A DNA stretch of 64,000 nt, taken from Lytechinus pictus. Its lineage: Eukaryota. The stretch lies in assembly GCF_037042905.1 (NCBI RefSeq), contig NC_087252.1:5024001-5088000 (forward strand). Reading direction: 5' to 3'. Position numbers and translations under genes: made by a program. The notes beneath the pieces are model-generated. The model was not told the DNA's origin, did no database searches, and saw only the letters and a list, made by a program, of their open reading frames with translations. How positions within the stretch are numbered: the first letter of the stretch is position 1; each line of letters starts with the position of its first letter. Below are positions 39,101 to 64,000 of this stretch, one piece after another.

Positions 39101-42100
39101 CTCCTTTGTTAAATATATAAATGGCTCTGGTGTCTCAAAAATGGCTCTTTGAAATTGAGAAATAGTTCTCATGAATTATGTTGTGTATGTGTGTGTGTGT
39201 GTACTGTTTTTTTTTTTTTTTGGGGGGTAACAATAAGCTATAAAAGACAGCAAAATAAACTAAAGTTTTTTAATATTTTTCTTTTTTTTACCAGTAAAGT
39301 TTAGGTTCGGACCAGTAAAAAATAGAAAAATTGGGTATCTACTGGTCCAGCACGACCAGGTCGGACCAGTAGAAAAAAGGGTTAGTGTAGAGCCTTGCTT
39401 TTTCATCTTCTCATCTCCTCCCATTTCCCTTTATATTATTTGATAAATTGATATATCATGTATAATGTATTATATGTCTTGATGTATTGTAATTTTGCAG
39501 TTGCCCCAGCATATGTGAATATCACCGGTCATGAGAAAATGGTTCAGTCAGATGCCACGCTCACACTTAAATGCACATCAGGTATGTGTAAGAAGTAGTT
39601 CTGTTAAGGCCACCGCACACATTATGATTGATCTATGATTTGATGTTTGGAATGAAACATAATACGTTTGGCTCAGTCGGTAATGCGTCTGCCTGTCGAA
39701 CCAAAGATCATGGGTTCGAGTCCACCCCGGGCGGATGACTGAAGCCAGTGCATTGTGTGTAAACGTCTCTCCCATGTTTCATAGATGCAGCCTATGTTAC
39801 AGTGGAAACACTCCGTCCCTCGGATTAGACGTTAAATGGAGGCCCTGTGTAGAGGAGAGTCACTGCCTTTGCACGTTAGGAACCCACTGCACTATTCGTA
39901 TAAGAGTAGGGGGAAACCACTATGTAGTGGTCCACCTGCACTCCCTCCCAATCAGTTATATCAGGAGGAGAGACCTGCAGGTCATAGTGATTCAGTTCGC
40001 TTTTCGACTCCCAGGCACAGGTGACACCAAACAAATAATAATAATAATAATAATGATAATAAAATTTGATCAAATATTGAGACATGGAGCATGTTGCTGT
40101 GTAAAGTTCTAAATTGTCATACAAATATTTATCCTAAAACCTTTGACTATGCGAACATCCTTATTAGAATAAAAATAGCGAATTGAATGTCTAGTTGTAA
40201 TGACGCCATAGCAATTGTATGTTTGGCTACGATTTGAATCCAATTTGGCCTTTACTCCAAAATAATGCTTGCAATCATCCAAAATCGGTATTAGTATTCT
40301 TACAGCTATTTTGAACCTCAAATAAAAAGAAATTTTTCATTCACATTTTTAGAAAGAGCAAAATGCGATATGTTCCAAGATCGGGTCGTAAGGTGTGCGG
40401 TGACCTTTATATAAAGGCAGAATGTCTTCGGTACAAATAGAAACAAGCTAATCATTACACCAAAAAATAGTACATACAAGTTCAATTCAAGTTCAATTCA
40501 ATTTTCAATCATAAAATCATAAAATATATATATACAAAGTAACATGAAGCAATTGAGATTTAATCTAATGAATGAAATTGGAGACTAATATGGAAGTTAA
40601 AAAAACTTGTAAGGCATAGTCATAAAGCATAAGGCAAATAGGGAAAAGAAAAACATGGTTGAACATGTTACAATATAATACATACTGCCTTAAAAATGAT
40701 GTACATTGCTGTTTTTACATATATAATCTAAGTTTGGCCTGAATGTTTTAGCCATAATTTGTTGTAATATGTCAGTGAACCATTTAGTAAAATTTTACTT
40801 AGTATATATTAGTATATATCTCACAACCCTTGTAAAAAAGTACCATACAGTACCATGGTATACTATGGTAATATCAAAGTATACCATGGTACTGTATGGT
40901 ACTTTTTTACAAGGGAATAATTGTTTCTTTCTTTACAACAAATTTTTATTTGGTAATGATTCCCAAACTTCCATCCCTTCGTGTTTCCCAGCCAACAGCA
41001 ACCCGGCGTCTTCCATCTCCTGGTTCACCGGCGGACGTCAGGTCCACACTCACGATGACGTAGTGGTCGAAGCCCCCAATGGAGGCTTCGTCACCTCGCA
41101 GGAACTGACGATCACGATGACGGCCGATACGGACAGCGTAGATTACATGTGCCAGGCAACCAATCAGGAGCTTTATGAGACCACTTCTGATACGGTGACT
41201 GTCAATGTGATGTGTAAGTATTTTCCATCGTTTTTGACTGTTGAAGCATTACAAATACCTTACATTCAATTCCAAACCCAGCCTAAGCCCCAATAGCAAG
41301 TATAATTGGGTGTTGCATGGAAGTTGATTTGGAGATGAAAGCAAGTAAAATTTGCATTTGACATAATGATTTTAAGATATTATGTCTCAACTAGAAAGAA
41401 TCCGCTAGGAGGTGTTAAATCTTGTGATGCGTGTAACTATAGCCTCGTGAATCAGGTCCTTCCTGTTGAATAGTGTATGCAAGTCCTCTGATGAAGCTAA
41501 CATGTACACCATAATACTCTAGATAAATGAGATATCCTATTTTTTTTCCCTCCAAAGATCCCCCAGAAAATCCTGGAATTACCGGCTATGAGGTTGGCAC
41601 GGAAGTCAAAGCCGAGAACCTTCTCCGTCTGGTGTGCTTTGCGATGGGCGGCAACCCTCTCGCCACTCTCGTCTGGTATAAGAATGGAGAGGTCCAGGAG
41701 GCGGAGACCGGAACCCAAAGCATTCTTTCCACCAGTACGCTGAGGATAATCTTGGATGAGACGGACAACGGGGCGGTGTATTCCTGTAATGCTTCCAACG
41801 AGGCCACGCCTGTTCCTCTACAGGCCAGTGTTACCCTCAATGTCCTCTGTAAGTCTGAAATCAAGCGCCATTTTGCAGTTCAGCTTTACCTCATTCAGGG
41901 ACATAAATTTCCTCAGGACTACATTAATTATTTTAACTCTTTTCACTCCTGAAATTGACAGATTTTTTTTCTTCTAAACCTTCTTCATAGTTTGAACCTC
42001 TCCAAAACACACTGGATGTATGTATAAAAATGAAAGATAACTTAAGTTTGATGATGCCAACTATAATATTTGAATAGGGATACATAATTATGTTACATGT

Positions 42101-45100
42101 AATAATCACATTGCCAATAGGGATGGTTGATGGCCTAGACTAAAATAATTGCTGATTCTTGGATAAGCGATTAGAAGTTCAAAGTTCATAGCCATCAAGT
42201 ATTAAAAGTTATACAAGAATAATTGCCAACTATCAAAGAGAGGGCAGGCATATACCAGTAATCACTTTTATTAAATATATTTGTTTGATCTTTTGGGCCT
42301 GACGTTACCATCATAGTATAATGGAAAATAACCCATATTTACCAGGACTGTAAGAAGCAGAATTGAACGGGCAGTCATCCCAGACCTTTTTAAATACAGT
42401 TTTTTTTATCATTCCCAGAGTTTGGCAGGTCTGGGCTAGGAGCCAAGCTACTAATCTTAACCTCTAACCTCCCCATTTGCTTTAGTCCCACCCAGTTCCG
42501 TTACTGTGAGTGTTGACCCACCTGAAGCCAAGGAGGGTGATAGTGTTACGGTGACCTGTGAGACGGCAAGTAGCAACCCAGAGTCTGAGATCTCATGGTG
42601 GAGAGATGGTGTTCCAATAGAAAGTAAGTCATCAGGGTCCTGCTACATAAATAATAATATTACATCTACATCGGTCATGAAGAGAGGTGTTCGTGGTAGG
42701 TCAACAAGCCATCACATGATCATAGCTGCTAGGATCGCTTTTGTAATTTTCTAGGTTTTAATGTAGCCTTAGTGAATATAACTGTGTTGTGAATATTGGT
42801 GCAACTTATTTTGCTACAAGAGAGACATATCATACATGTAAGGAAATGTGATTAATTTTGATTTCACTAAGAAATAGAAAGTGGGGACATGCAGATTATT
42901 GCTGTTAGTTGACAACATAAAATGATTTATTGACACTGAAATAGTTTTTGATATAAAATATTTAATTTCTTGATAGAGTCTATAAAAATACTTTTTATAT
43001 ATCAACCCTACTTTAATAGGGCTTATACAGATCAGGATATTTGGGGGATGAGGTTCACTCTCTTGGCAAGCTGGATATACTCACTTTTTTCCCTTCATTT
43101 TCGCTTCGGAAAGATACCTACATCCAGCTTGCCTCGAAGTTGATAGTTTTCCTATCATATTCACCAACAGTGATTATTGCTTACCATTATACTCATCATA
43201 ATCATCAGTAATTTTGATTTCAATTTCTCTTTACACTGTAGATACTAACAACATAAGTACTGAGGTATTAGATGCAGAAAATGGAGGCAAAAGGACTCGT
43301 AGTCGTCTCCATCTTGAATCTGTCACCTCGGCCAACAATGGGGGTGTTTACCTTTGCCGTGCAATGAGCGATCTTGTTGTCGAGAGCGTCAACGATGGTG
43401 TCACACTTGATATCAAATGTGAGTTGTGTTTCCATGACACTTGTGATTTATATACCATAATAATGATGATGGTGATGATGATGATGATGGTGATGATGTT
43501 GGGGATGATGATGATGATGGTGATGATGATGATGGTAATGATGATGGTGATGATGATGGTGCTAATGAAGATGATGATGATGATAATGGTGGTGATGATG
43601 ATGAATGACTACAACAACAACAACAACGACTAAGAGAGGTAGCCCCTCTGTACTGGTGGTCATTAAAGGGATGGTCCAGGCTGTAGATATTTATATCACA
43701 ATAAACAGAGTAAAATTCACAAAGCAAAATCGGATAACAAATAACAAAGTTATTGAATCTTAAAGATTTGCATTATTCCGGTGAACAGTTATAGGCATGT
43801 CTTTATGTCTTTTGGTCTCTTTACCTCATTTCAATTTTCTAGTCAAACCCAAGATAACCACCCCTACTGGAATATCTTTGAGCAGCCATGAAGTTCCCGG
43901 TGACTTGGCTCTCAACTGTTCTGCCGAGGCCAACCCTCCCGATGTCACTTTCACGTGGAACAAGGACGCCGCCGAGATTAACGTCGCTGAGACGGAACGA
44001 TATACGCTTGATGAGGAAGGATCGTTGCTTATTCACAACGTGTCGCGAGAGGAGGCAGGGACGTACATGTGTTTAGCAAGCAATTCGGAGGGAGCAAGCA
44101 ATATAACAGCCACCCTAGATGTGCTTTGTAAGTTGAAATAAATTAATACTCTAAATGTAGTTTATTCATGATGTAGTATCAATACGTGGCATGCTGCTTT
44201 ACTTTTAGTGGTGCAGAACATATTAAAACAAATACAGAGATAAACATACACATGGTGAAACATATTGGCCCAAATTCACAAAGGTGGTTTTGAAATCCCA
44301 CAGTTGAGTCCATGGTTTACCGGGTATGCAGATTTCCTGTTTAAAATTACGCTTATTTTGCTGTGTATATTAAAAATGTCCAATGCTGATGCGTGCTTTT
44401 GTCACAGTGCGCCAAATTGACGCCTGTTGCCGTGGTTATTCACGCTATTTTATTCATGAGTCCACTGTTTTGAATTAATGAGTCCACTCTTCAAACAGTG
44501 GACTCATTGATAAAATAGCGTATCTATAACCATGGTAACAGGCGTCAAGTTGGCGCACTGTGATAAAAGCGCGAATCAGCATTGGAATTTTTTATACACG
44601 CGCCCGATATGTGCTAATTTAAGCGTAATTTATACAGGAAATCTGCATAAACCATGGATTCAACCGTGGGTTTTCAAACCCACCTTTGTGAATTCGGGCC
44701 AATATGTATCATGAATTGATTATGGACTTTTCCACAGCCCTTATGCTCCCACACACACACACACACACACCCTAACACACATAACAATATGGTCAAAAGT
44801 CACATATTTTTATTTGAATGTTTTATGAGTTAATGTAGGTATGTCTACAAGAGAATAAGAGAATTTGTCTAGTTGATCTCATTAGGCCTATAGCATAATG
44901 TATAATTTTAGCAATCTCTCATGACGTCATTACACAATGTAGTTATCATATCATTATATCAACATGTAAATCATTTTATTTCATCATTTGTTATTGTATA
45001 TCATTATATCACAGTTATATATCTCATTAGGCCTATAGCATAATGTATAATTTTAGCAATCTCTCATGACGTCATATAAAGTAATAATCATATCATTATA

Positions 45101-48100
45101 TCAACTTGTAAATCATTTTATTTTATCATCATTTGTTATTGTATATCATTATATCACACTCTTTAGTAATATGTTTTATTTTCATATGATCTTTGTCCAC
45201 ACTAGATTCTGCTAAGGTGACCACTGGAGAGGCAATCACCATCACCCTCAACACCCCTGGAGAGCTGGCCTGTGAAGCGGACGCCAACCCCAAGCCAGCA
45301 GGGTACATCACCTGGACCAGGCCGGGGTTTGACCTGACAGGTTACGCCCATGAGTATGTAGATGGGCGTGGCATCATGAGGGTGGATAACGTCACCAAGG
45401 CCGTCAGCGGGATGTACCTCTGTCACGCTGATAATGGCATCCCACCAGCAGACACCAAGAATATACAAGTTATCATTCAGTGTGAGTTAGAAAACTTGAT
45501 GGATGGCGTTTTTATAGGTTGACTTATCCATGAATTCCCAATTTTGGCAATGATCATGAAATGAATTTAGAACAGAATCCAACAAAATTTACCACCCAGG
45601 TGTTAGTATGAATAAAACATGCGCCCAACGATTCCTGAAGAAGTGAGTATTTGCTGAAGAAACGAACAAGGCATAGGTGACGCCATACAAATAATGATAA
45701 AAAGAACTGTGGCATTCTGTATTGTGCATTGTAAAATGTCCCCTAAATTTTTTACAATGAAAGGAAAATAAAGATGTATTGTAAATATTTTATTGAGTTA
45801 TCTTTTTCATGAATGTAAATATTAGTTTTATCAACTTTCCGCGGAATGTTACAAATAATGGTTTAATTAATTGTTACAATAATGGGTTCTGACATAGTCA
45901 TCATGTAAAGATGATATGTAATGGCATCCCACCAGCAGATACTAAGAATATTCATTAATCAGTGTGAGTTATAAAGCTTGATGGATGCGTTTTTATAGGT
46001 TGATCTTACTATGAATTCCTATTTTGGCAATGATCATAAAATGAATTTAGAACAGAATCCAACAAAATTTACCACCCAAGTGTTAGTATGAATAAAACAT
46101 GCGCCCAACGATTCCTGCAGAAGTGAGTATTTGCTGAAGAAACGAACAAGGCATAATGATTAAAAAGAACTGTGGCATTCTGTATTGTGCATTGTAAAAT
46201 GTCACCTAATTTTTTTTACAATGAAATGAGAATAAAGATGTATTGTGATTATTTCAATGAGTTATCTTTTCCTGAATGTTTATATTAGTTTTATCAACTT
46301 TCCATGGAATGTAAATGATAATAATGGTTTATTTAATGATAACAATAATGGGTTCTGACGTAGTCATCATGTATATGGCTTTAGCATAGGTGCTAGATTT
46401 TTAGAGTGGTAATTGACTTTATGAGCTGTTCATGTAGACTGAATTTTATTCATCTTTTTTTTATTGTTTCCTTAGACCCTCCTGAAGTAGACCACTCCAT
46501 GCCAAACAAGGTAGCCAAGAGCACCGGCCAGACCGCCCTCCTCCGCTGCAGGGCTGAAGGATCCCCTCTCGTCCAGTTCAACTGGTTCAAGGGGTCGGCG
46601 GAGGTCAACTTGACCAGTGACCACTACACGCTGGACATCAGACAAGATTTGACCTATGCTAATCGTTACGAGAGTCGGTTGATCATCAGTCAGATCGATG
46701 AGATTGATGATTACGGGACGTATGTCTGCAAGGCTTATAATGACCTGGGAGAGGCTCGCTTTGAGATACAACTGGAGAAGACGAGTAAGTCCTGTGGCCC
46801 TGTGACATAAAGATTAGCAATCAATCGTGTTGATTTTTATGATTAATCATAAATGATAACCTTAGAAATCACTCTCGTGATCAATTGCTGAGCTTCATGT
46901 TACCGGGTGCTTTGGCTCTTGTTCAGGGGCCTGTTGCAGAAAGAGTTGCGTTTAAACGCAAGTCAAAATATCAAGCGCAAGTCCCGAATATGGGTGCTTC
47001 ATTGGCTGAAAATCAAGTTGCGCAAGGTTTTTTGAGTTGCATTTGATCGCAACTCTTTCTGCAACGGGCCCCAGATATGGCATGAAAATAAACCCTACCA
47101 ATATTACAGAACAGTAAAGTGCCACTTGGTCTGTATCCACTGTGTATTTGGTCACATCCCACATGATGTAATCCCAATATGTCTAAAACCAGTTCATCTA
47201 ATTAACAACCAGTTAGTTTTTAAAACCATTTTGTCTAATATCTACTTGGTCTATTACTCACCTAGTTTTAATTAGTCGACTAGGTAAACTGATTAATTTG
47301 TAAATATAGTTACGTAGTTAACTATATAACTTGTAAACCTGGTCATCTGAAACTATTATTTGATTCTTTTCGCTGGATAGGTCCACCTGAAGCCCCATCT
47401 AATCTTCAAGTTGTTGAAATCAGCTTTGATTCAGTCACTCTCAATTGGACCAAAGGTAAGTACTTACAGAATAGATGGATTGATGTTGTTAATGATTTAA
47501 GTAGGGCCTTGAAAGCATTTCATGATAGAAATAGTAAATTTCACTGACAACTTTTAGAAGCTACTGAAATCCTTACTTGTGATTGGCCGATAACAAATTT
47601 GTCAGTACAGTGAAAATCACATGATATCTGGATTTTACCATCATCTTGCATGTCCTTGCTCGCATGTATGGATTTTGGTTGCGTTCTGTTGTGGATGTTT
47701 GAAAAAGCTTCAAATTATCAAGCTAGAATGCAAGACCTCTGCTTTAGTTGCCTATTGACCTTGTATTAGCTGATTTCATTGCATTGTGTTGCGTTAGACT
47801 GTGATTGTCTGCGTTCGGGCAATACGCAGCTGAACGCAAGCCCCTAGGCTTCTAAAGGGAAACTGACTCAGTAAGGTAACAAAGGTAAATTAAATTCTGC
47901 ACAATGACAATCTATAGAATTTTTCATTTTTGCTTTGCTCATTCTTTACCACCCTTCTAGGTTTTGATGGTGGATTGGATCAGACCTTCCAGGTCCGCTT
48001 CAACCAGAAAGGTGGGAAGCAGTATCAGTATGTTGACGTTTCACCATCCACTTCAACAACATTCACAGTATCCAACCTTAACCCCAACTCTGACTACGAG

Positions 48101-51100
48101 TTTACCGTGAGAGGGCGCAATGCGCAGGGAGACGGACCGTATTATCTTGGAATCGTGTCTGCCAAGACAACTGGTAAGTAGGCATTGTGGTTTAGTGCTT
48201 CTGAATCCAGCCGATTAAGTAGAGGATAATGGGTTCAAATCTTACTCCTTGCATTAATTTCCTTTCTGGGAGCTACTTTTCACAACCTGCCGTGTAAATC
48301 TTCAACATGTATAAGCTTTAACATTGCAGTAAATTTTGATTTTCCAGATTTTGTTTTAACTTTCCAGAGCTCTTTTGAGCATTTTGGAAGTGAAATAACC
48401 CCATGTCCCTGTGTATTTTTCTTCTGAGTTGATGGTATTTCCAACCTTTGTTTTTCTATTTTGTTGTCTCTTTTGCACAGAAGAACGATTAAATTAATCG
48501 ATTGATAAGTATATAAATACAAATATTGGTACATGAATAAAATCATTATCAATTAAATAAGATTCAAACTTTGGTTGCAGTGATGGAAAATTGAGTGTAC
48601 TGGCTTCATGGTTTTTCAGTGATGTGGGTCCTTATATTCCATGGACAGAATGTCTATTGTTATAGTTGCTTGTATTTTGAAATGTAAATTTGACACGTTT
48701 TCTCTTGTTTTTCATTTCAGTCAAGCCCACAGAGCCTCCAGTTGAAATTCCAACACGTGAGTAAAGAAATCTATAAGCACAGAATTCACAGAAGATGGTT
48801 TTGAATACCTGGTTTGAATCCATAGTTTGTGCAGATACTAATTATTTATGTATATTGAGAAAGGTTCCCATTGTAAGTGGCGGTTTTGTCCCAGTAATTC
48901 AAATCTGTTGGCTCATTAGAGCTTAATCCGTAGTGAAAAGGTGGAATCCAGCTCCCTCTAACAGAGATGTGCTTTGATAAGTTGATTGTTTCCCATTTTA
49001 TGTGTACTCCATGAATTGATTAATTGATGCATAAATCTGCATAAATTCTCTCATTCTTTCAATCACTCTCTCGTTCTTTCTATCATTCTCAGGTTTATTG
49101 GTTGGTAACATCCCTCTCTACATGGTACTTCTCTTCTCATTCCTGTGCATCTTAAGCTGTGTTTTCATTAATATATTCCTTTGTTGCTGTCTCGTCAAAC
49201 GAAGGGAATCAAGAAAGAAGGTCGCAGGTGAGCTTGAACTTTATGATAGATCAATTTACCAAAGGTCATCGCACATAGTCTGATTGGTGTATGATCTGTT
49301 TTTTGGAACAAATTACATTTTTCATATTTCTGATAATAGATACTTATAGCAATAGGCCTATTTTAGTTTAGGCAGTTCAGAATAATTTTGTATGTTCTTT
49401 TCTTATTTTTGTCAAGTTAAGTTCAAATTGAATTTGAATCATAGCTGATTGTCCCTTTGTTATGATGTTGGGTTTGGATATACAAAAAAGGATAAATTTG
49501 ACTATTTCTGGGTATTTCTAGGGAATTGCTGTGTTATGGAATTACCTCTCCATGAATTTGGAAATTTAGATTAAGAGGATGGTGTTAATTTTGTTTTCCT
49601 TCCAGCAAAATCTTCATCGATCCAGAAGAAGACTGATGAAGTTGAACTTGTAAAACCAGTGTAAGTAATACTAGCTAATACTCTTTGTCAAAACAAATAG
49701 ATATGTGTTCCAAGTGAGAGTAGTAGTAAGAATCCAGGTTTTAATTCTGGTTGATTCCCTGATAATGGTGTGGCTGGATTTACCTCACAAAATTTGCTCT
49801 TACCCCCTACATTTAAGCTCTACTCGGAATCCCGGGAGGGGGGGGGGGCAGTCAAATATATTGCTGTACACATGCGTGACCCAAAAAACGCGTTTAATTG
49901 GGTGTTTTTTTCAGTTTTGGACGCGGGCTGCACGTGCACATGTTAAGGGTATAAAAAACACTGATTTTGAAGAAAAAGAGTGGTTTTGAAAGACTGGTCA
50001 CTGGTCAATCACGGGGTCAAACGTATTTAGGGTATGTATTTTTTCCAAAGTTTTTTAAAATGCTAGCCAAACATGTTTAGGGTACTGTTTTTACTCCCAA
50101 GCTTTTTCCCCATGGTCATATTCTGGCGACAACTTGTTTGGGGGCCAAAATGTGTAAATCAAGCCAGCGAAAAACTTGTGTAGGGGTTATTTTGTACACA
50201 CAAAAAAACTTGTTTAGGGGGTCTTTGGAAATTACTTGGTCATGCGTGTGTACAGCAATATATTTGACTGGAGCCCCCCCGGGCTCGGAATATCCTCCTT
50301 CCATCCAACTCTTCTATTCTTCTCCACCACTCCTTCCATGTCTTCTTTGGTTACCCTGTAACATTCTGACCATCAAAGCATGTGGTAGAACTATGGTAAT
50401 TTATGGAGATTAATAATGTCATGGATATAACCACCATTCTTTCCTTCCTATATTAAAAAGGTCTTCTCTGTTTCATGTACTGGTAAGATAATTTTTGTGT
50501 CTTGCATTGAAAAAACAAAAATTAATTTGAAAAAAAATTGCTGTGTTAGAATATATCACACTTGGACTTAACAATAGACAAACAACTTTCTTTCTTACCA
50601 GTCAAAAAAACAAACAAAATATGATACTCCAGCTTATTCATGTAGAGATCTAGCAGGGCTCGTTAGTGAAATTTATCCAGTCAAGATAATGTATAATATA
50701 TTTTTGGTACTGTATGTTGATGCAGTCATTTATGGCACTACTTTATCATTTATTTTTGCAGTGAGCGCCCTGAGAGTCCTGCTTACAGCGACTCCAACAC
50801 AGACAACATGTCTCACCGATCTGAGCATGACGATCGCTACTCGTACGACAATGTCAGCTACGACAGACGACGCTACGACGACTACAGCGATGGACGATCT
50901 GAAAACTATGACCATTACGATGACAGACAACCTCCTATCTCACCTCGTGTGGTCACTAGCCGAGGTGGACCAGGCTACTATGAGCATTCTACTCATAGAC
51001 CACCTTCCTATGCTCAGAGCTGGGATTCTTATGGTAAGAAAAAAAATGAATGTTTGCTTTAACAGAGGAGATAAACGTATCAGTAATTTTGATTCTTGTC

Positions 51101-52280
51101 TCGCCTGCATAGCAGAGGGAGACTATAGGCGCCGCTTTTCTGATGGCGACGGCGGCGGCTACGTCAACATCAAATCTAAACCTAAGGTTAAGTTTTTTAA
51201 ATGACATCATTACTTAGAAAGTATATGGACCTAGTTCATGAAACTTGGACATAAGGGTAATCAAGTATTACTGAACATCCTGCCTTGGTTTTAGGTTACA
51301 TGACCAAGGTCAAAGGTCATTTAGAGTCAATGAACTTTGGTCATGTTGGGGGTATTTGTTGAATTTGAGCATCATAACTTAAAAGTTTATGGATCTAGTT
51401 CATGAAACATGGACATAAGGATAATCAAGCACACATCCTAGATCACATGATCATGGTCAAAGGTCATTTTGGGTCACTGGACATAGTATTGTATTATCAT
51501 ATGACTGTTTTCTTTTGTGAATAATTATTCAATAGCTGTTTTCAAAGTCAGCACCGCTGCTATATCAAATCGGGTTATGCAGACGAGACTGCCAGAGGCG
51601 TTCCATTAGTTTATTATTCACCATATGATATAAAAGCTTCAAGATCTATGTTAAAATGGAGATGGACGGTCAGCCAGGTACAATTGTCCTCTGCTCACCA
51701 TATCGACAATATTCTACTTTTCCAACTTTGTTGAAAAAAATGGAGAACATTTGATAAATATAAGAGTTGGTCAGCACACTCATAATCTATTTCACTCTCT
51801 TATCAAATGTAAATGAAAAAATAGTAGTCTAGGGGTTTTACTAGTTTCGGTTGGTTACTGGCAAACAATATATTTTCTTGTATTGACAGAATAAATGACA
51901 AGATAAATGACTGAAAACTTATATCTGAGGAAATTGTTGGCAGTTGCCAGATCTATTAAAAATAGAACCCTTCTGGTTCCTAAAATAAATTCTGAATTTC
52001 CAACTGCATATATATTCTTCAACCTTATCTTCCTTACTTGACAGAAAACCCACCAAGCACTGGTCTCTCTGAATCCCAGATCGATGACAACGAGGAACGC
52101 GAGTATGCCGACATGCTACGACGTCAGCAGAAGGCCCAGTATATGGCCCATGGGGGTGCTATCCAGCCCCCTACAGCTCCGAGCCCAGTCCCCAGCAGCC
52201 TCGGGAATTTTGTGCCCCTACCTAAAGGGGGCTCTGCTGCCCCCAGCCAAGTAGGTAGTGAAGAAGGTTACCTGGTGTAG
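21088..52280 (+). CDS. NPHS1: Nephrin-like (NPHS1/Sns/Hbs/SYG-2 family) Ig-superfamily adhesion receptor, complete spliced CDS, ~1272 aa
   Basis: 22 GT-AG exons with consistent phases: 21088-21169, 26846-27022, 34247-34384, 35242-35436, 35772-35906, 36807-36916, 37767-37947, 39501-39581, 40992-41213, 41558-41848, 42486-42623, 43242-43418, 43843-44127, 45206-45481, 46476-46784, 47381-47455, 47961-48173, 48721-48756, 49093-49227, 49606-49660, 50762-51033, 52045-52280. They sum to 3819 nt, a multiple of 3. Architecture is SP + 9 Ig + FN3 + TM + tail. Repeated GGNPLA/SNP motifs, FN3 GFDGG, YDNV and C-terminal EGYLV (human nephrin ends GHLV). Gene symbol is by family resemblance. Confidence 0.9.
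22725..23145. repeat. Same palindromic dispersed repeat family
   Basis: Shared core AAGTGTTAATTGTGCAAAATGAATGAAAAGAAAATGG and inverted halves. Confidence 0.65.
23270..23919. mobile_element. PIF/Harbinger-like MITE, related family
   Basis: TIR TACCCCTTTCATA, TAA TSD, internal TTCGCCGGCGAA-type palindromes. Confidence 0.78.
24661..25136. mobile_element. MITE with TIR GGTGGTTTCA(G/A)ACCGCCTCGA
   Basis: Terminal inverted repeats with TA flanks; GC-rich interior. Confidence 0.72.
25544..25816. repeat. Same family, internally deleted copy
   Basis: Matches the ends of 22725-23145. Confidence 0.6.
26846..27022 (+). CDS. Nephrin-like exon, Ig1 N-half
   Basis: QQSFATTPVDTEVVEGQDVTLQCAV...IIWSKD; tgcag acceptor, gtaaat donor. 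Confidence 0.9.
27680..28671. mobile_element. Non-autonomous Tc1/mariner-type element
   Basis: TA|CAGTGCGTATCAAAAAAAAGTTTACACTT...AAGTGTAAACTTTTTTTGAAACACACTG|TA; no transposase ORF. Confidence 0.8.
30619..33664 (-). mobile_element. Gypsy (Mag-like) LTR retrotransposon, internally deleted, recent insertion
   Basis: 162-bp TG...CA LTRs at 30619-30780 and 33503-33664 with 1 mismatch; TSD GACAT; PBS TGGCGACGAGGATGG next to the 5' LTR, matching the tRNA-Ser(GCU) 3' end as I recall it; PPT AAAGGAGGGAAATA next to the 3' LTR. Confidence 0.95.
30991..33489 (-). CDS. Gag N-terminus fused in frame to RT-connection, RNase H and integrase (832 aa); no protease or RT catalytic core
   Basis: Gag-like YFGPK..VMIERYHFRQRVQ...RDQLI; then P.NVKELASFLG...Y.KF, RNase H TDAS/YSTGERE/TDHQAL, integrase HxxH...CxxC, D...TDNGPQF...E. 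Confidence 0.9.
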   Translation of the reverse strand: MAGIGLVAPNPFLATPGEPPVPWSRWILSFKTYLTASGLDTAEIPDLRRRAILIHCLGREGQRIFGQLEVSTTGTYDKAVDELEKYFGPKTSVMIERYHFRQRVQGHGEPVKQYVAAITELASKCKFGTLNDELVRDQLIEKTSIPRIRERLLMEDDGLTLKKGTLPAPTNVKELASFLGTTNFYRKFVPQYAEIAEPLQKLLRKDALWEWHNAQETAFNTLKGRIAEPPVLAHFTPSAETYVTTDASAFAIGAVLSQTIDGSVRPVAFASRALSDTERKYSTGEREALACIYACEHWHMYLYGRKFTLRTDHQALTTLLSTSGSGHRPLRIYRWSDRLHQYDFKVEYLAGSRNRVADMLSCTPNANSNRDSHARSDIEDDVEDYVLMVISHVTAKLVTREQLKTESAADATLQKVCHYLQTAWPREISEDLVPYHRVRNELAIFDDTCIARGTQAVIPKSLQHRLLQTAHESHPGVVKMKQRCREAIWWPAIDRRVEDLVRSCEACTLSEKTQPRPAPLQPTPWPKKPWQQLQVDIFGEVQAAPQSQRFLLVVHDLHSKWPEIAATSSVTTTSVISILEKMFTKWGLPESITTDNGPQFTSEQFEEFLAVNGIQHRLTTRYNPQSNGGVERFNRVIKESLKANLADGMTFDKAIQTLLRTYRSTPHSLTGKTPAELMLGRNLRMPFNILKPPVSEPASTQAEAREIERKQQSMKAYTDKRRRAITPKFAIGDWVRVKRPNRKHKLASGVSKPKQIVNKLGSNAFVLDDGTRWNTRRIIASKPGNMNESDWEDTFPFPTSTEDQEQQRAEPRTVRRSQRLRRRPGYLRDYRS
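34247..34384 (+). CDS. Nephrin-like exon, Ig1 C-half (absent from ORF track)
   Basis: GDATREGNLEIQRADISDDAEYRCHV...SEPAAVIVL with Ig DxxxYxC motif; tttag acceptor, gtaaga donor. Confidence 0.9.
34485..35195. repeat. (GAT/GGT)n low-complexity intronic repeat with ~170-176-bp higher-order triplication
   Basis: Marker ATGATGAAAGTGATTTTGAT at 34681, 34851 and 35027. Confidence 0.9.
35242..35436 (+). CDS. Nephrin-like exon, Ig2 N-half
   Basis: PPDPPVI...LPCRANNGKPAPVITWLK; donor gtcagt. Confidence 0.88.
35772..35906 (+). CDS. Nephrin-like exon, Ig2 C-half
   Basis: KRVNAVSTLTLNPEKEDNGVTYACKVSH...LDVR; GT-AG. Confidence 0.88.
35943..36212 (+). mobile_element. tRNA-derived SINE
   Basis: A box TGGTCTAGTGG, degenerate B box GTTCAGATCC, (AACAG)n-type tail. 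Confidence 0.65.
36807..36916 (+). CDS. Nephrin-like exon, Ig3 N-half
   Basis: PPSAPVISGY...LRCTSLGGNPLAE; phase-0 donor gtaaat. Confidence 0.88.
37074..37345 (+). mobile_element. tRNA-derived SINE (degenerate)
   Basis: TGGCCTAGTGG A box, GGTTGGAATCC B box, ACTCGACCCAGGTGAGGTAAATGGGTAC core. Confidence 0.6.
37767..37947 (+). CDS. Nephrin-like exon, Ig3 C-half
   Basis: VYWYKND...DNNAIYKCVA...LSVN; donor gtaagc. Confidence 0.88.
37969..38270. repeat. 12-bp minisatellite (GATAATGGTATT)n
   Basis: Directly visible; intronic, starting just after the donor at 37948. Confidence 0.9.
39501..39581 (+). CDS. Nephrin-like exon, Ig4 N-half (absent from ORF track)
   Basis: FAPAYVNITGHEKMVQSDATLTLKCTS; ttgcag acceptor, gtatgt donor. 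Confidence 0.85.
39605..40407. mobile_element. MITE (TIR AAGG(C/T)CACCGCACAC) with a nested SINE
   Basis: Inverted termini at 39606-39620 and 40393-40407. Confidence 0.6.
39666..40062 (+). mobile_element. tRNA-derived SINE with Deu-domain-like core and (AAT)n tail
   Basis: A box TGGCTCAGTCGG, B box GGTTCGAGTCC, CGGATTAGACGTTAAA...GAGG core, (AAT)n end. Confidence 0.7.
40992..41213 (+). CDS. Nephrin-like exon, Ig4 C-half
   Basis: NSNPASSISWF...NGGFVTSQEL...YMCQATN...VNVM; donor gtaagt. Confidence 0.88.
41558..41848 (+). CDS. Nephrin-like exon, Ig5
   Basis: YPPENPGITGY...CFAMGGNPLATLVWYK...DNGAVYSCNASN. Confidence 0.9.
42486..42623 (+). CDS. Nephrin-like exon, Ig6 N-half
   Basis: FPPSSVTV...VTCETASSNPESEISWWRDG; donor gtaagt. 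Confidence 0.88.
43242..43418 (+). CDS. Nephrin-like exon, Ig6 C-half
   Basis: ENGGKRTRSRL...NNGGVYLCRA...LDIK; donor gtgagt. Confidence 0.88.
43460..43630. repeat. (GAT)n/(CAA)n microsatellite
   Basis: Directly visible; intronic. Confidence 0.9.
43843..44127 (+). CDS. Nephrin-like exon, Ig7
   Basis: LNCSAEANPP...FTWNKD...GSLLIHNVSREEAGTYMCLASNSEG. Confidence 0.9.
44261..44706. mobile_element. Long fold-back MITE (GGCCC termini)
   Basis: ~200-bp imperfect inverted arms; smaller relatives at ~46925-47072 and ~53007-53160. Confidence 0.7.
45206..45481 (+). CDS. Nephrin-like exon, Ig8
   Basis: LACEADANP...ITWTR...SGMYLCHADNGIPP. Confidence 0.9.
45432..46373 (+). repeat. ~470-bp tandem duplication spanning the end of the Ig8 exon and the intron start
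   Basis: 45432-45907 is repeated at 45919-46373. Confidence 0.85.
46476..46784 (+). CDS. Nephrin-like exon, Ig9
   Basis: LRCRAEGSPLVQFNWFK...DYGTYVCKAYNDLG. Confidence 0.9.
47381..47455 (+). CDS. Nephrin-like exon, FN3 N-part (absent from ORF track)
   Basis: SPPEAPSNLQVVEISFDSVTLNWTK; donor gtaagt. Confidence 0.87.
47961..48173 (+). CDS. Nephrin-like exon, FN3 C-part
   Basis: GFDGGLDQTF...NLNPNSDYEFTVRGRNAQG. Confidence 0.9.
48721..48756 (+). CDS. Nephrin-like 36-nt juxtamembrane micro-exon
   Basis: strong pyrimidine tract + ttcag; VKPTEPPVEIPT; donor gtgagt; phase 1-1. Confidence 0.7.
49093..49227 (+). CDS. Nephrin-like transmembrane exon
   Basis: IPLYMVLLFSFLCILSCVFINIFLCCCLV followed by basic KRRESRKK stop-transfer. 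Confidence 0.88.
49606..49660 (+). CDS. Nephrin-like cytoplasmic exon (absent from ORF track)
   Basis: AKSSSIQKKTDEVELVKPV; phase 1 to 2, required to put the next exon in frame. Confidence 0.8.
49831..50283. mobile_element. MITE with CCCGGG termini and 8-bp TSD (superfamily unassigned)
   Basis: TSD CTCGGAAT at 49823-30 and 50284-91; inverted CAGTCAAATATATTGCTGTACAC arms. Confidence 0.8.
50762..51033 (+). CDS. Nephrin-like Tyr-rich cytoplasmic exon
   Basis: ERPESPAYSD...YSYDNVSYDRRRYDDY...RPPSYAQSWDSY. Confidence 0.85.
51093..51607 (-). mobile_element. Third HINE/Tsp-like copy, short array
   Basis: Reverse complement of the same termini and unit. Confidence 0.72.
52045..52280 (+). CDS. Nephrin-like terminal coding exon
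   Basis: ENPPSTG...SEEGYLV-stop; PDZ-ligand-like terminus. Confidence 0.85.
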
Positions 52281-57300: not shown

Positions 57301-57791
57301 AAAAGATGATAGATACCGAGTCAATAGAATAGACTTCAAGAGGAAGTTCACAAAATATTGAAGGTTTGTCGAAAATCTGTTAGTTATTACGAAAGTTTTA
57401 TAATTTTTATTTTTTCTTTATTTGTGACGTCATATAAGAGCAGCTGGCCCATTGAGTTAAACAATGCAAACATTTTTAACTTTTTAATGGTGCACGATAA
57501 AAAAAATCTTTCAGGAAGTGAGTGTAAAATAATTTTTTGATACAGAAGGTACAATATAACCCATTTTCATTTTTCTGAGAAAATGACATTTCACTGATTT
57601 GCGATGCATGGGAAGCTGTTTCAATATGTCACTAATGAAAAAAATTAAATTGTAATAACTCTTTGAATCTATGATGGATTTTCCTCAAACCCTGGTTGCT
57701 AGCTTACAAGCATTCATGCTTTCTTAGCAATCAGGTAAAAAATCACCACCATATTTAGCTATTACCATTCTCACATTCCTCTGATGCAGTC

Positions 57792-60700
57792 TGTGGCTGC
57801 CGCCCTTTATCTGGGTCAAAGGGCGGCAGCCACAATAAAATACAATTGCTGTAGACATTTACGCTTCGTACGGCATGAGTGAGCGAGAAACATCGGTGAG
57901 GATGACGTCGCTGAAAGAAGCAACCAGTGATGAGGACCTGCAGAGCGAAGTAAGTGGTAGCAGTAGCAGAATGAGCAGGATATCAAGTAGATCAGCAAAA
58001 AGTGAACTTTCTGCCCGTAGAGCCTCACTGGAAGCTAAAAAGGAAAATGAAAGTAAAATGCTAATGTTGCTAAAAGAGGACAAAGAAGCTAAACAAGCCT
58101 TTCATCAAAATAGGAAGGCTGTTCTTGTCCCGGTTCTTGTACAAAAAATGAAGACTCTCTTGAGCTTGAAGAAAAAGATATGGAAAATGTCTATCTTAGT
58201 GAGCAGAAAGTGATTGCTGCTCAAAAGTCTATAGTAGCTGCAGACATAGAAATCTCAGAACTGGCTAAGTTGGAAGAATGCTGCGAAGATGATAGTGAAA
58301 CTGATGATGAGGTTTCTATTAAAGGACTGACGCGGGAGAAAAAAAGTGAAAGTATGGAGCGATTCTTTGACTCACAAGAGGAAGTCGCAGTGAAAAATGT
58401 CAAACCTGAGCCTCTTGTGGTCAATACTCCACCAGCTAGTAGCCCAGCAGTGCAAGCAGGACGGGATACAGCCGCATCGACACTGGAAGATTGCCTGCAA
58501 CAGCTGACTCGTTTTGTAGCAGGACAAAACGCAGCCAGTAACCAACTAGCCGCATTCAGTCAACTCCCTAAAATCGACGTACCAATCTTCTCTGGTGATC
58601 CTCTGCAGTACACGCTGTGGAAAATGCCTTTTACTGTACCATGGATTCAAAGCCAATTGGTGAGCAATACAAATCGAATTATTTGAATGCATATGTCAGT
58701 GGCAGGGCTAAGGAGATAGTAGAGCATCATCTTTTGATAGGAGGGAGTGATGCATACCAAGAGGCTTTGAAGCAGCTAGAGGACAGATTTGGTGATCCAA
58801 ATACAATAAGCATCTCGTACACTAAGAAACTGACTTCATGGCCGAAGATCTCAAGCCGTGATGCCAGTGGACTGAGGGACTTTGCAGATTTTCTTCAGAA
58901 AGTTGTGGCAGCCAAGAGAAGAGTCTGCAACTTGGGAATTCTGGATTACCCTCAAGAAAATGTAAAGCTAGTGGAGAAGTTACCAGGCTATTTGGAGGGA
59001 AAGTGGCGTGATGAAATCGATAGATGGCGTTCTCATAAAGGCCCACAAAGCTTCCCTTCGTTCACAGAATTTGCCAAGTTTAATTGTTATGAAAGCTGCA
59101 AACAAGGCAAATATCCCTGAGATGGAGCCATTATCTAAGGAGACAAAGCCGAGCTTCCAAACGAATCAAAGGAGTGTGAATGCAAGGACCTTTGTTACAA
59201 ACGGACAAGATAATGAACCAAGCAAGCAGTCCAAGGTATCGTCTAAGCGTAGGCATGGCCTCTTCTCAATGTGCCCTTTTTGCGAGAGAGATCATCATAT
59301 TGAAGATTGTAATCATTTCGCAAAAAACTCTATCCAGGTGAGAAAGGCTTTCTTCAGGAAGAAGATGATATGCCTTGGGTGTGGAGGAACAGACGATAAC
59401 TTTGTCAAAAATTGTCAGCAGAGAAAGTCATGCAAACTATGTGAAAAAATGCATCTCACATGCCTCCACTACGACCAAACCCAACCAGAAAAAGCTGAAC
59501 TGCAGGAAGGAACATCGAATTGCACATCTGTATGTCTGATGCCTGAGCAGGATGGTAAGGATCACAGCATGATCGTTCCAGTTTGGGTAAGGCATGTGGA
59601 TCGACCATCAGAGGAGATATTAGAATATGCCATTCCTGATGACCAGTCGAACGTGAGTTTTGTCTCCAAACGCCTCTGCAAGAAGCTAGATGTTAAAGGA
59701 GAGAAAACAAATCTTCTCCTTACAACAATGCACGAGACAGTGAAGATAGAAAGTGAAAGGATTAAAGGTCTTGAGGTACTGGACTTCAACAAGGAGAATG
59801 TCATCCAGCTGCCAATTACTTTGTCCAGGGATTCGTTACCCGCATCCCGCTCCCAGATCCCTAAGCCAGACGTAGTCAAGCAGTGGCACCATCTGAACAG
59901 TGCAGCAAGTAAAATGATGCCAAACAGGAAAGATGTAGAAGTATCGTTACTTATTGGTAATGATTGTACAAGAGCAGACGTTAGACCACGTGAAATCATA
60001 AGTGAAAATGAAGATGACCCATATGCCCAGAGATCATTGCTTGGATGGGGAGTAGTTGGGAAAGTGTGTAAAACTCCTGGAGAACTCAAGTCTGCAACTT
60101 GTAACAAAACCTCAGTCAACTCTTACCCCAACTTCGATTTCCAGACAAATATTGAGGAAATTATCTGCCCTGAGAAGATTATCCAAGCATTTGAAGCCGA
60201 CTTCAAAGAGGAGAAGGAAGGTCGTCCACCATCAGTACAAGATATGAGGTTTCCTGATATCTTGGAGAAGGGAATAACAAAGAGTCAAGACAGGAATTAT
60301 GAAATGCCTCTACCCTTCAAGTCAGATCATGCCCAAGTGCCTAATAATCGTCATCTTGCTGTAAAGAGCTCGAATCAGCTGAATACTCCCCATTCTTCTC
60401 ACATGGGGGGAGCATGGGAAAGGCAGATTGCAAATGTTCGTCGTGCTCTAGAGCCCCTGCTACTCAGCTCAGGAAACCATCTCGAAGATGAGTCTTTCAG
60501 AACATTCTTAATAGAGGTTGAATCAATAGTCAACTCTAGACCTCTTTCGACGACAAACCTTTGTTCTCCAGATGCTCCTGAGCCTCTAACACCAAACCAT
60601 CTGTTGACTATGAAACCTAAAATTGTGCTACCACCTCCTGGAAAATTCCAAACGACAGATTCCTATTGTCGCAAATGGTGGAGACGAGTTCAGCATCTCT

Positions 60701-62534
60701 CCAATGAATTCTGGCTGAGATGGAGAAAAGAATTCTTGGCTGAACTCCAAACCAGACAGAAGTGGGTCAAACCAAAGCGAAGCGTCAGGGCAGGAGATGT
60801 GGTCATTGTCAAAGAAGAAGGTGAATTTCGAGGTAATTGGCCTCTTGGTCGAGTAGAGAAAGTCCTTCCTAGCAAAGATGGTCACATACGCAAAGTCCAA
60901 CTGATGATTGCAAACAAGTGTTTAGACAAAGATGGACGAAGGAAAGGTCAGCCAACTATCCTTGACAGACCGATACATAAGCTGGTGGTCCTAATTCCTG
61001 CTGAAGAAACATCACAAAAAATGATGCAATCGGAAGACCAGAGGATTCCCAATCAGGGTTTTAAATTACTCGATTTCCTTCAAAAACATTTTTGTTTTCC
61101 GATTTGTAGCCAGGAAGAAAATAAGAAGTGATGTCTTACTGTAAATGTTTAATTTCTCTTTCTCTGAATCTGTCAAACTCTTTCCCTAGTGTCCTCATTC
61201 TCTCTTCTTCTTCATCTTCTCCCTCGACTTTCTCTCTCTTCTCTCTCTCCCTCTCTCTCGATCTCTTCTCTTTCGAAGTTTCATCATATTTTCTCGCATT
61301 CATTATGTATAGAGTAATTTTTGGAATGTATAAATTGCTTGAGGTGTAATTTGTAACAGTAAGATCACTGAGTAATATTGATTTAGATTGAAATCCATTT
61401 CATGGCATTGGTATCGTTAACATGTTTGAAGCTCTATTTATTATGATTTATCTACAGTCAATGTATTTCATGTGCCTGACATATCTATGTACTAAGTAGT
61501 ACAATTGCGACACTTGATTTTAGTAGTATTGTGCTAAAGATGATCACATAATCATTGTTAATCAGGTGATTGAATCATTTGTTTTAGTTTTACAAGATAA
61601 TTACACACTGAAATCAGAATATCATGATTCCTACTTGGGTTGTTTTTACATTGCAGTTTATACTGTAGCGAATATTCAATTATTTGAAATATTAATATCC
61701 TTAATCAATTTCTTTTGTAGTAATTTCATGATTTTATGTAACTGATAACAGGATCAGTTAAAGGAGCCATGTCACTGCAGCAGTGTGCAGTGAGTTCTAT
61801 GCAATTTTAATGCTGTATATATTTTGATATTATGTTGTTTAAATTCATATTCCACTTGGTTTCTCATTTCGCACTCTAGCATTTTCTTAATCTCTTTCTA
61901 CATGAAATCCCATAGGGCAGGTATGTGTTACAGTATAGGTACAGAAACTACAGAAAGAAACTAAAGTATAATCATATTATAAATCTATATGTTCGTATAT
62001 CGTGGTCTCAACTATCAATAGAAAGATATAGAGTAAAACTTATAAGCAATCTTACCAATTGGAGGCTATAAGACAATACACTTGGTTGCAATCAATACGA
62101 GAAATATCTTGACGGTCAGCTGGAGTTCTCTCTTCTATGTCTTTACTACGAACTGAAGTTTCTTGGCTTTTTGCATCTCTATTTAAAGGTTCTGAACTTC
62201 TGGTCAAGCCAGACTGCTCATTAGACAGTCTAATTAAAAGTTACAAGGAAGCTGGTACTGCCCAGCACTCTACACAGAACAAAACAATGAACTTGACCAT
62301 TCCTATACAAATTATAACAATAAAGGGTGGACGCGATTTTTGTCTATAGAATTAGCTTTCTGTACCTATACTGTAACACATACCTGCCCTATGGGATTTC
62401 ATGTAGAAAGAGATTAAGAAAATGCTAGAGTGCGAAATGAGGAACCTAGTGGAATATGAATTTAAACAACATAATATCAAAATATATACAGCATTAAAAT
62501 TGCATAGAACTAACTGCACACTGCTGCAGTGACA
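57792..62534 (+). mobile_element. BEL/Pao LTR retrotransposon remnant with rearranged (inverted) LTR ends
   Basis: TGT...ACA termini flanked by the direct repeat CAGTC (57787-91 and 62535-39); BEL-type gag, Cys-His knuckles, protease and integrase C-terminus inside; purine tract AAAGGAGCCA before the LTR start TGT at 61770. Confidence 0.85.
57875..61131 (+). pseudogene. BEL/Pao gag-pol pseudogene: frameshifted gag; RT, RNase H and integrase N-half deleted
   Basis: Four overlapping ORFs; LPKIDVPIFSGDPL.Y gag motif; CPFC..H..C and CKLC..H..LH knuckles; degenerate protease YAIPDDQSNVSFV; PLPFK...PNNR joined directly to integrase SHMGGAWER, VNSRPL, PLTPNHLL, FW.RW.KE, WPLGRV. Confidence 0.88.
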
Positions 62535-64000
62535 CAGTCACAGTCCCTATAGGGATAAACTACACACATAATACTGCACAATACTGTTTCTATTGGGATA
62601 AACTTATCACAGTATAATGAAACAAGCAACAAATATGTCAAACAAGAGTTAGAGAAAGTTTGAATAAATTTAATGGTGACCGAAAGTAGACATAGATTTT
62701 AATCTAAATACATGGACATACTAACCCAAGAAGAAAAGAAAACTAAAATTGAATCATTACATAAAAAAGTGGAATAAATTCTTCAATAAACGTGACTTAC
62801 ACTAAGCAGCCTTGTACCATAGAACAATAAATTATTAGACACTGCAAGCACATAAACATGCGTTTCATACAATAATGTGCACTTAATAACACAAGATATT
62901 CATAAAATATAAATATGATACACATTTCCAAACTAAAAACCTGTGAAACAATTATATGATATAAATCTAATCACTTCTTCCCCAAATCTTTAAACTATTT
63001 TCTTCTTGGTAATAGGTAATTCAAGTCATACTCTTTGAATAAATCAAAATACCCTCATACCAAGGCAATGACATGATTGTTTCTAATTTTATGAATTGTT
63101 TCTGGACTTACTTTTTGGCTTGAAAGCTTGAAAACAGATGTAAGCTTTGGACCTTGTGTGCTTGAAACAAAGAACATGTATCCATATTGCATGTGATCAA
63201 ATATCAATTCATGTAATCTGTTTCAGTGGAAAGGAGATACACATGATTTCATGAAATATTTCTTGAATTGAATTTATTTTCACATTTTTTTAAAGTGTAC
63301 TTACTAAGATTTTTTTTAGCATTGTCATCAGACTTATGATTCTTTATCTGGTTACTGGTGATTGTACACTAAATATAAATAAACCCACCTACATGAACAC
63401 TTACATCACTGAATATTTTAAATATCCTAATCCTAAATCACATAAATCCATGTGTATTAAATAAGAACAGCAGTTACTATTTCAGTTTTAAGAAATAGAA
63501 AACAAACTTGCATTTACACAATGTATCTGCTATGATAAGCCACATGCATACATCCATATGTATTTTGAATCAAAGCAAAAGCTTTATTTCAGTAATTACC
63601 AAAATAAGCCATTAAGCTAACTTTACATTTAGGTATGTACTTTTATGCAATGTAGATGCTATTAAATCTCACATGCATAAATCCATATGTATTTGAATCA
63701 AAGCAAAAGCTTTAATTCCAGTTTTACCAAAAGAGTCCCTCATAGTAAACCTTACATTAAGGTATGTACTGTATTTGCTAAATGATGAATATATTCCAAA
63801 GTTTATGTATAAGAATAATAGTTTTTCAGTAAACTATTTCAGTAAATTTCTTGTCAGGATGGTTGCATACTGATTTATACAGTATCAACTACATGACACT
63901 TGCAGCCATTATACATCTACCTAACAACCCATTCTCATCTACTTTCTTGATCTGGTTACCCTTACACTACTTCACAAAACTAGGAGATTACTTCGCTAGT

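Follow-up and report, generated by a model that had tools for sequence, protein, structure and literature searches.

A defective BEL/Pao retrotransposon copy in Lytechinus pictus with its body flipped between junctions inside its long terminal repeats

Elements of the BEL/Pao group (Belpaoviridae) are recognized by a set of defining features, such as a triple Cys-His box in Gag (PMC554778; other features are drawn from PMC3118150; here and below, statements about a source refer to the passages cited from it). Inverted or rearranged elements have been described in other settings. For example, inversions were reported in 2 of 88 sequenced integrated HIV-1 proviruses, and asymmetric long terminal repeats (LTRs) of HIV-1 were ascribed by the authors to misalignment during reverse transcription (PMC9278108). 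Autointegration joins LTR termini to internal targets; inversion circles have been described for SISYPHUS and Ty1, and some LTR elements form them in abundance (PMC7197481). DIRS-1 is a retroelement with an inverted LTR arrangement, and its family is characterized by inverted repeats at the two ends, an internal complementary region (ICR) and a tyrosine recombinase (PMC7192593). Moreover, variants in which an inverted segment lies between two deletions (DEL-INV-DEL) accounted for 4 of 21 human complex cases, one of which was repeat-mediated at both junctions (PMC6258378). In this study, we analyzed a stretch of 64,000 nt from Lytechinus pictus (assembly GCF_037042905.1, contig NC_087252.1, positions 5,024,001 to 5,088,000, forward strand), hereafter the window, whose own positions serve as coordinates. 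Near its right end lies what is very probably a single minus-orientation insertion of a presumably helper-dependent BEL/Pao derivative that lacks reverse transcriptase (RT), is bounded by a 5-bp target-site duplication (TSD), and has its body flipped between two non-native LTR-internal junctions, J1 (57817/57818) and J2 (61947/61948).

The copy resembles BEL/Pao elements in its DUF1759 and DUF5641 domains, its TGT...ACA ends, its 5-bp TSD and its clade-typical boundary motifs, but it differs from them in lacking a direct LTR pair, in its inverted body, and in the loss of RT, RNase H and half of the integrase. Like the HIV-1 proviruses (PMC9278108) it is integrated and defective, with an internal inversion or unequal LTRs, although those proviruses are somatic rather than germline and a flip of the whole body with LTR-internal junctions does not appear in the passages cited. 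It shares with the DEL-INV-DEL variants (PMC6258378) an inverted segment between two deletions with junctions in repeats, yet here everything lies within one element of 4.7 kb and the fold-back junction is only 26 nt from a terminus. Inversion circles (PMC7197481) are likewise LTR-element DNA with an inverted part, but their termini join internal targets, whereas the window copy is joined from mid-LTR to mid-LTR and its termini are native. Finally, its inverted pairs lie within each end of one copy, and it has a remnant of a DDE integrase and a TSD; the features that define a DIRS-1-type element (end inverted repeats, ICR and tyrosine recombinase) are absent, and this classification was rejected. 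A literature search that covered few subscription papers turned up no account of an element flipped over its whole body at two LTR-internal junctions; for inverted LTRs, DIRS-1 was the only case that it listed.

The ends of the insertion are well defined. TGT begins at 57792 and ACA ends at 62534, with CAGTC directly outside each, exactly where a preliminary description of this DNA had placed them. Two fixed places would share 5 bp by chance with a computed probability of 0.0009-0.0015, and both inverted homologies end precisely at the TGT and ACA that adjoin CAGTC. At the left end, two arms (57792-57808 and 57818-57834) form a perfect 17-bp hairpin with a 9-nt loop (z = -8.6 relative to 200 shuffles), although a hairpin by itself is weak evidence in this repeat-rich window, which holds five perfect hairpins, this one included, with arms of at least 14 nt and loops of at most 30 nt. 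At the right end, an inverted pair (61770-61947 and 62357-62534) extends over 178 nt with three substitutions and no indels, corresponding to a divergence of 1.7% between the two LTR arms (95% confidence interval 0.35-4.8%). Both structures had been described before at these positions, together with a motif resembling a polypurine tract (PPT) ahead of the plus-strand arm and an absence of direct-repeat LTRs, and all of these observations were reproduced. Self-BLAST of 57700-62700 against the window revealed no direct-repeat LTR pair. An intact BEL/Pao member would carry two LTRs in direct orientation, and the copy is therefore classed as a rearranged derivative, albeit one with the TG...CA termini and short TSD of the group.

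Read from left to right, the copy consists of a TSD, the last 17-26 nt of the LTR in minus orientation, J1, the last 17 nt of the LTR, an internal region of 3935 nt, LTR nt 1-178 in plus orientation, J2, LTR nt 587-1 in minus orientation, and the second TSD (Table 1). The preliminary description had proposed the same order, with minus-orientation outer ends and a flipped body with breakpoints in both LTRs; the order agrees with contigs of other family copies and with boundary motifs of relatives, and those contigs also support the proposed orientation and breakpoints. The LTR sequence retained amounts to 43 + 765 nt (808 nt) rather than the expected minimum of 2 x 613 nt, such that at least 418 nt have been lost, and the 409-nt middle of the LTR occurs only once. 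A simple inversion without loss is therefore ruled out. Rather, an inverted segment with loss at both junctions conforms to the definition of a DEL-INV-DEL structure. J2 is flanked on both sides by one 8-nt motif, and there is a small tandem duplication at this site. As far as tested, this structural variant is represented by a single copy.

Table 1. Features of the BEL/Pao copy, in window coordinates.
Feature	Positions	Strand	Basis
Left TSD copy, CAGTC	57787-57791	+	sequence match
Outer left end: last 17 nt of LTR, probably with the 9-nt loop (26 nt)	57792-57817	-	arms; contig X2 rec 19
Inner copy of LTR 3' end, 17 nt, starting at J1	57818-57834	+	contig X2 rec 19; ACA/RTAA boundary
Primer-binding-site (PBS) position; nt 9-14 complementary to the last 6 nt ahead of the LTR splice donor	57835-57848	+	shuffle test
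Remnant of gag and protease with DUF1759, LIG and Cys-His boxes 1 and 3; changes of reading frame near 58156, 58620 and 59070	57875-60387	+	comparison with P0001
Internal-deletion junction	60379-60388	+	comparison with P0001; contigs X12 rec 10, X13 rec 15
C-terminal integrase half with DUF5641, up to the stop codon	60379-61131	+	comparison with P0001; domains
Stretch holding a ~45-nt insertion private to this copy	61056-61107		joint 61055->61108 in 4 of 4 runs
PPT-position motif AAAGGAGCCA, directly 5' of the LTR start	61760-61769	+	boundary motif in relatives
Inner LTR 5' part, nt 1-178, ending at J2	61770-61947	+	inverted pair; contigs of other copies
Outer right end, LTR nt 1-587	61948-62534	-	contigs of other copies; motifs
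Right TSD copy, CAGTC	62535-62539	+	sequence match

The identification of the end pieces as LTR sequence relies on other copies of the family, which are contained in four sequencing runs (X1, X2, X12 and X13) whose contigs were aligned to the window. One contig from another copy (X12 rec 11) matches 61792-61922 on the plus strand and then continues on the minus strand from 62356 down to 62056, and a contig joint in X1 shows the matching change of strand (61947->62332). Because the 178-nt arm runs into the complement of the 409-nt middle in these copies, 61948-62534 is assigned as LTR nt 1-587 in minus orientation. Two further contigs (X12 rec 12 and X13 rec 18) match only from 61952 upward and are preceded by 220 and 188 different letters, respectively, and since other sequence lies beyond 61952 in these copies, J2 is not a native joint in them. 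We considered these 188-220 letters as a minimum length for the missing part of the LTR, but dropped this estimate because they may extend into flanking DNA. At the left end, contig X2 rec 19 (depth 196) reads without interruption through 57818-58331, which indicates that the inner hairpin arm is natively joined to the internal region. The first two letters of this one contig are unaligned and its match begins at 57818, and for this reason the 9-nt loop is assigned to the outer arm. None of the contigs listed joins the 587-nt LTR piece directly to the 17-nt end, and the link between the two is thus indirect. J1, J2 and an empty site are likewise absent among the contigs listed, but no weight is placed on this. 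Zero depth at 57851-58852 in X12 and X13 was not counted as a finding.

A domain search located DUF1759 and DUF5641 in the body, and the nearest protein is a Lytechinus variegatus polyprotein of 1892 aa (XP_041484991.1, here P0001) with RVT_1, Peptidase_A17 and Integrase_H2C2 domains, to which the retained parts are 84-94% identical in amino acid sequence. These parts follow the order gag-PR-RT-RH-IN with DUF1759 and DUF5641. All three Cys-His boxes of Gag match in P0001, whereas only boxes 1 and 3 match in the window copy; likewise, the protease retains LIG but has no match to the LLDxG pattern that P0001 carries. An internal deletion of ~2.46 kb, equivalent to aa 837-1657 of P0001 (821 aa), has removed RT, with the YVDD motif present in P0001, along with RNase H and the N-terminal half of the integrase. 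The element is one dead, defective BEL/Pao copy. No source within the window was found for the ~45-nt insertion near the end of the integrase. The preliminary description had missed this insertion, as well as the internal deletion, the three frame changes in gag and the intron-like segment at the right inner junction.

The internal deletion is not confined to the window copy. Contigs X12 rec 10 and X13 rec 15, which are counted as one observation because both runs come from one study, cross the deletion junction unbroken while being 5-6% diverged from the window copy, and contigs X1 rec 6 and X2 rec 25 depart from the window at 60379-60388, as expected of full-length copies. Another contig, X2 rec 24, possibly spans the deletion but could be a forced alignment and was left uncounted. 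If the divergence of the LTR arms were 5-6%, three or fewer differences between them would arise with a probability of 0.005-0.02. Since the arms differ by only 1.7% while the deletion is common to a copy that is 5-6% diverged, the deletion is probably older than the window insertion, and the RT-less form would then have been mobilized in trans. The deletion shared at 60379-60388 also suggests a non-autonomous BEL/Pao subfamily that keeps gag, the protease region and the integrase C-terminus.

For comparison, we used as relatives 78 BEL/Pao loci from metagenomes, which are distant from the window copy (33-58% at the amino acid level). The motif GGAGCCA/TGT, in which the slash denotes the boundary, marks the start of the 3' LTR on the coding strand in 18 of the 78 loci and is never found in this role on the other strand, although few independent families are represented. 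Similarly, ACA/GTAA follows the 5' LTR in three of the four relatives with a readable 5'-LTR end, and the window copy has ACA/ATAA. A TSD of 5 bp, which we take to be the usual length for BEL/Pao elements, is present in relative L037. Comparison of the relatives' DNA with the LTR pieces yielded only four short BLAST matches among the 78 loci, none of them useful; a 23-nt pattern of the left end had no match in metagenome contigs, and an integrase query found no relative in viral contigs. Inverted repeats of at least 40 nt occur in 2 of the 78 BEL-containing loci (L043, 2063-2579, and L067, 526-1440; 82 and 150 nt).

Motifs in the LTR suggest that it contains an intron related to the priming of reverse transcription. 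The 587-nt piece includes a TATA-like motif at LTR nt 348, which may belong to a promoter, and its only GTRAG donor is GTAAG at LTR nt 480 (62055). The piece ends at J2 in a pyrimidine tract followed by AG, where a putative 108-nt LTR intron would end, and J2 thus appears to lie within ~5 nt of a putative splice acceptor. The 6-nt complementarity between the donor side and PBS nt 9-14 was reached by 107 of 20000 shuffles and by one other of the 42 GT sites in the piece. The acceptor-side half of the corresponding joint match is deleted in the window copy, in which the 6 nt of the donor side are retained. Among related loci, 9 of 12, from ~5 families, have 11-14 nt after the 5' LTR that are complementary to the exon joint of an LTR GT-AG segment (L002, L003, L005, L007, L010, L042, L046, L047 and L048, all distant BEL/Pao loci from metagenomes). 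In controls, joint matches of at least 11 nt were observed in 1 of 9 and 6 of 80 cases, and with a canonical donor in 0 of 9 and 0 of 80. The matches in related loci agree with the idea of a splice-built primer, wherein the PBS would pair with the exon-exon joint of the LTR intron, and the match between donor and PBS would link the minus-orientation 587-nt piece, if indirectly, to the element's own PBS. Because the part after the acceptor measures 95-168 nt in relatives, a full LTR length of ~680-760 nt is suggested.

How did the copy become inverted? We consider it most likely, with about even confidence, that it was born inside-out through template switching during reverse transcription and then integrated normally. 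According to this proposal, the growing DNA would change polarity twice. The strand would begin at the minus-strand primer and fold back after 26 nt (J1), and the folded-back strand would copy 17 nt plus the primer, transfer through PBS pairing and continue as plus strand to LTR nt 178. At J2 it would switch to LTR DNA of opposite sense near nt 587 and run off the PPT-defined end; a mirror-image order of these steps would yield the same product. Because both outer ends would be natural primer-defined ends, integrase could insert such a molecule normally and create the TSD. Several positions are favorable to this route. The four breakpoints are all within LTR sequence rather than flank, the two outer termini are native, as are the two inner boundaries within the LTRs, and the two sides of J1 are at most 9 nt apart in LTR coordinates, which is the geometry of a fold-back and is placed at the very start of minus-strand DNA. 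Moreover, the PBS follows the J1 arm and would be the next template for a fold-back on a primer-bearing strand, and J2 would lie near the expected point of first-strand transfer if the idea of a splice-built primer is correct. The 8-nt motif flanking J2 is a further point in its favor. In HIV-1, minus strong-stop DNA can fold back and prime itself in vitro (PMC6088434), and inversions do occur in integrated proviruses of this virus (PMC9278108).

A number of considerations weigh against an origin by reverse transcription. The route depends on two aberrant switches together with another template molecule, and the positional arguments were made post hoc. The short homology and small tandem duplication at J2 would fit end joining of the polymerase-theta type equally well, and no sequence feature distinguishes this route from chromosomal repair. 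Contigs X12 rec 12 and X13 rec 18 both lose their match at 61952, and hence the last four letters of the putative acceptor may be non-native. The window allele is present in none of 14 runs, of which none holds half of its words (best word share 0.22). In addition, self-primed products were termed dead ends and were undetected in endogenous reactions (PMC6088434), and the moment at which the HIV-1 proviral inversions arose is not shown in the passages of PMC9278108.

The same structure might instead have formed by a chromosomal DEL-INV-DEL event after insertion, a possibility that we take seriously while judging it short of probable. A normal minus-orientation copy would have been broken in both LTRs, or affected there by template switching at a replication fork. 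Its middle would then have been turned round, with sequence lost as each of the two joins was repaired; at J1, snap-back synthesis would have left the 17-nt homology, and J2 would have formed through microhomology and a templated duplication. An intact TSD is expected under this scenario, the structure is a textbook example of its class, the 8-nt motif on both sides of J2 fits synthesis-dependent end joining, and the divergence of the arms would reflect elapsed time. However, two breaks would be needed in one small element, with all four ends in LTRs and one of them 26 nt from the terminus, and the fold-back continues into the PBS instead of host flank. An unlikely alternative is that a solo LTR in minus orientation with a CAGTC TSD was broken and then patched by copying the LTR end, the internal region and the first 178 nt of the LTR from a family copy in opposite orientation. 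A single local deletion would then suffice, and LTR depth exceeds internal depth in all four runs, consistent with the existence of solo LTRs. Nevertheless, this would demand an ectopic templated insertion of 4.1 kb bounded exactly by native LTR-internal boundaries, and the arms are only 1.7% apart although family copies differ from one another by up to 15%.

We judge a chimera of the assembly or library to be very unlikely. The absence of the allele from the 14 runs would be expected in that case, and consensus errors could account for the three changes of frame in gag, but three substitutions with no indels between the arms are unlike a fold-back copy of one molecule, the junctions have microhomology only, no inverted-repeat pair encloses the flipped segment, the window is free of N, and the TSD is exact. 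Later integration of an autointegration product (an inversion circle), which the preliminary description had entertained, is highly improbable in spite of the abundance of such circles for some elements, because the inner junctions lack a TG/CA terminus and share no 5-mer in direct or inverted orientation; all termini are, moreover, in native or host context. It is scarcely credible that the hairpin and the inverted pair are independent sequences like miniature inverted-repeat transposable elements with CAGTC matching by chance, which had been named as the finding that would overturn the inside-out structure. Other hairpin repeats do exist in the window, but both structures are parts of the family LTR in other copies, the boundary motifs match relatives, and the chance of the TSD match is ~0.001. 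We thus slightly favor aberrant reverse transcription over chromosomal repair and regard the origin as unsettled.

The surroundings of the insertion are rich in repeats. Just to its left, 57440-57752 is a high-copy interspersed repeat with a summed contig depth of up to ~2e5 per bin. A Gypsy-type element at 30991-33510 on the minus strand has RNase H and integrase domains, apparently without most of RT, and is accompanied by a direct repeat (30619-30780 / 33503-33664; 162 nt, 99%). Tandem arrays of a ~163-nt unit occur at 4042-4942, 10837-11998 and 51091-51611, one of them in opposite orientation. Among host sequences, a V-set immunoglobulin (Ig) exon lies at 2868-3338 on the minus strand, and Ig-domain exons with an FN3 exon occupy ~37700-48200 on the plus strand in a layout that is presumably nephrin/kirre-like. 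The last exon detected is at 47.9-48.2 kb, and a scan of 42 of the 85 open reading frames (37 on the plus strand and 5 on the minus strand) revealed no host exon past 48.2 kb.

A possible outcome of the flip is that the element's own promoter has become a source of antisense RNA. The minus-orientation 587-nt piece keeps the TATA-like motif and the putative donor and acceptor, and would now point into the antisense body. Read-through on the plus strand would fold a 178-bp stem, as computed. By analogy with Mu killer of maize, the copy might be both a germline fossil of aberrant reverse transcription, with junctions that show where a splice-primed BEL/Pao element begins priming and where its strand transfer takes place, and a silencer that an animal LTR family has generated against itself; we consider this combined reading unlikely. 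Its silencing part is proposed because the intact promoter half of the 5' LTR points into the antisense body. Mu killer is also a rearranged defective copy whose inverted duplication can give hairpin RNA, but it derives from a DNA transposon, has a hairpin of ~4 kb, and has demonstrated silencing activity (PMC3440606), whereas the stem of the window copy is a computed potential structure.

Most likely, the copy records a one-off accident of copying or DNA repair rather than a new kind of element. If chromosomal repair was responsible, then the copy is a small, ordinary case of a complex structural variant that lies in a dead repeat. Because inside-out copies have no direct LTR pair, they would escape LTR finders that require one. 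Alternatively, if the copy was born inside-out, then BEL/Pao integrase would accept any cDNA with correct ends, and the junctions would be a record of replication intermediates in a poorly studied group of retrotransposons.

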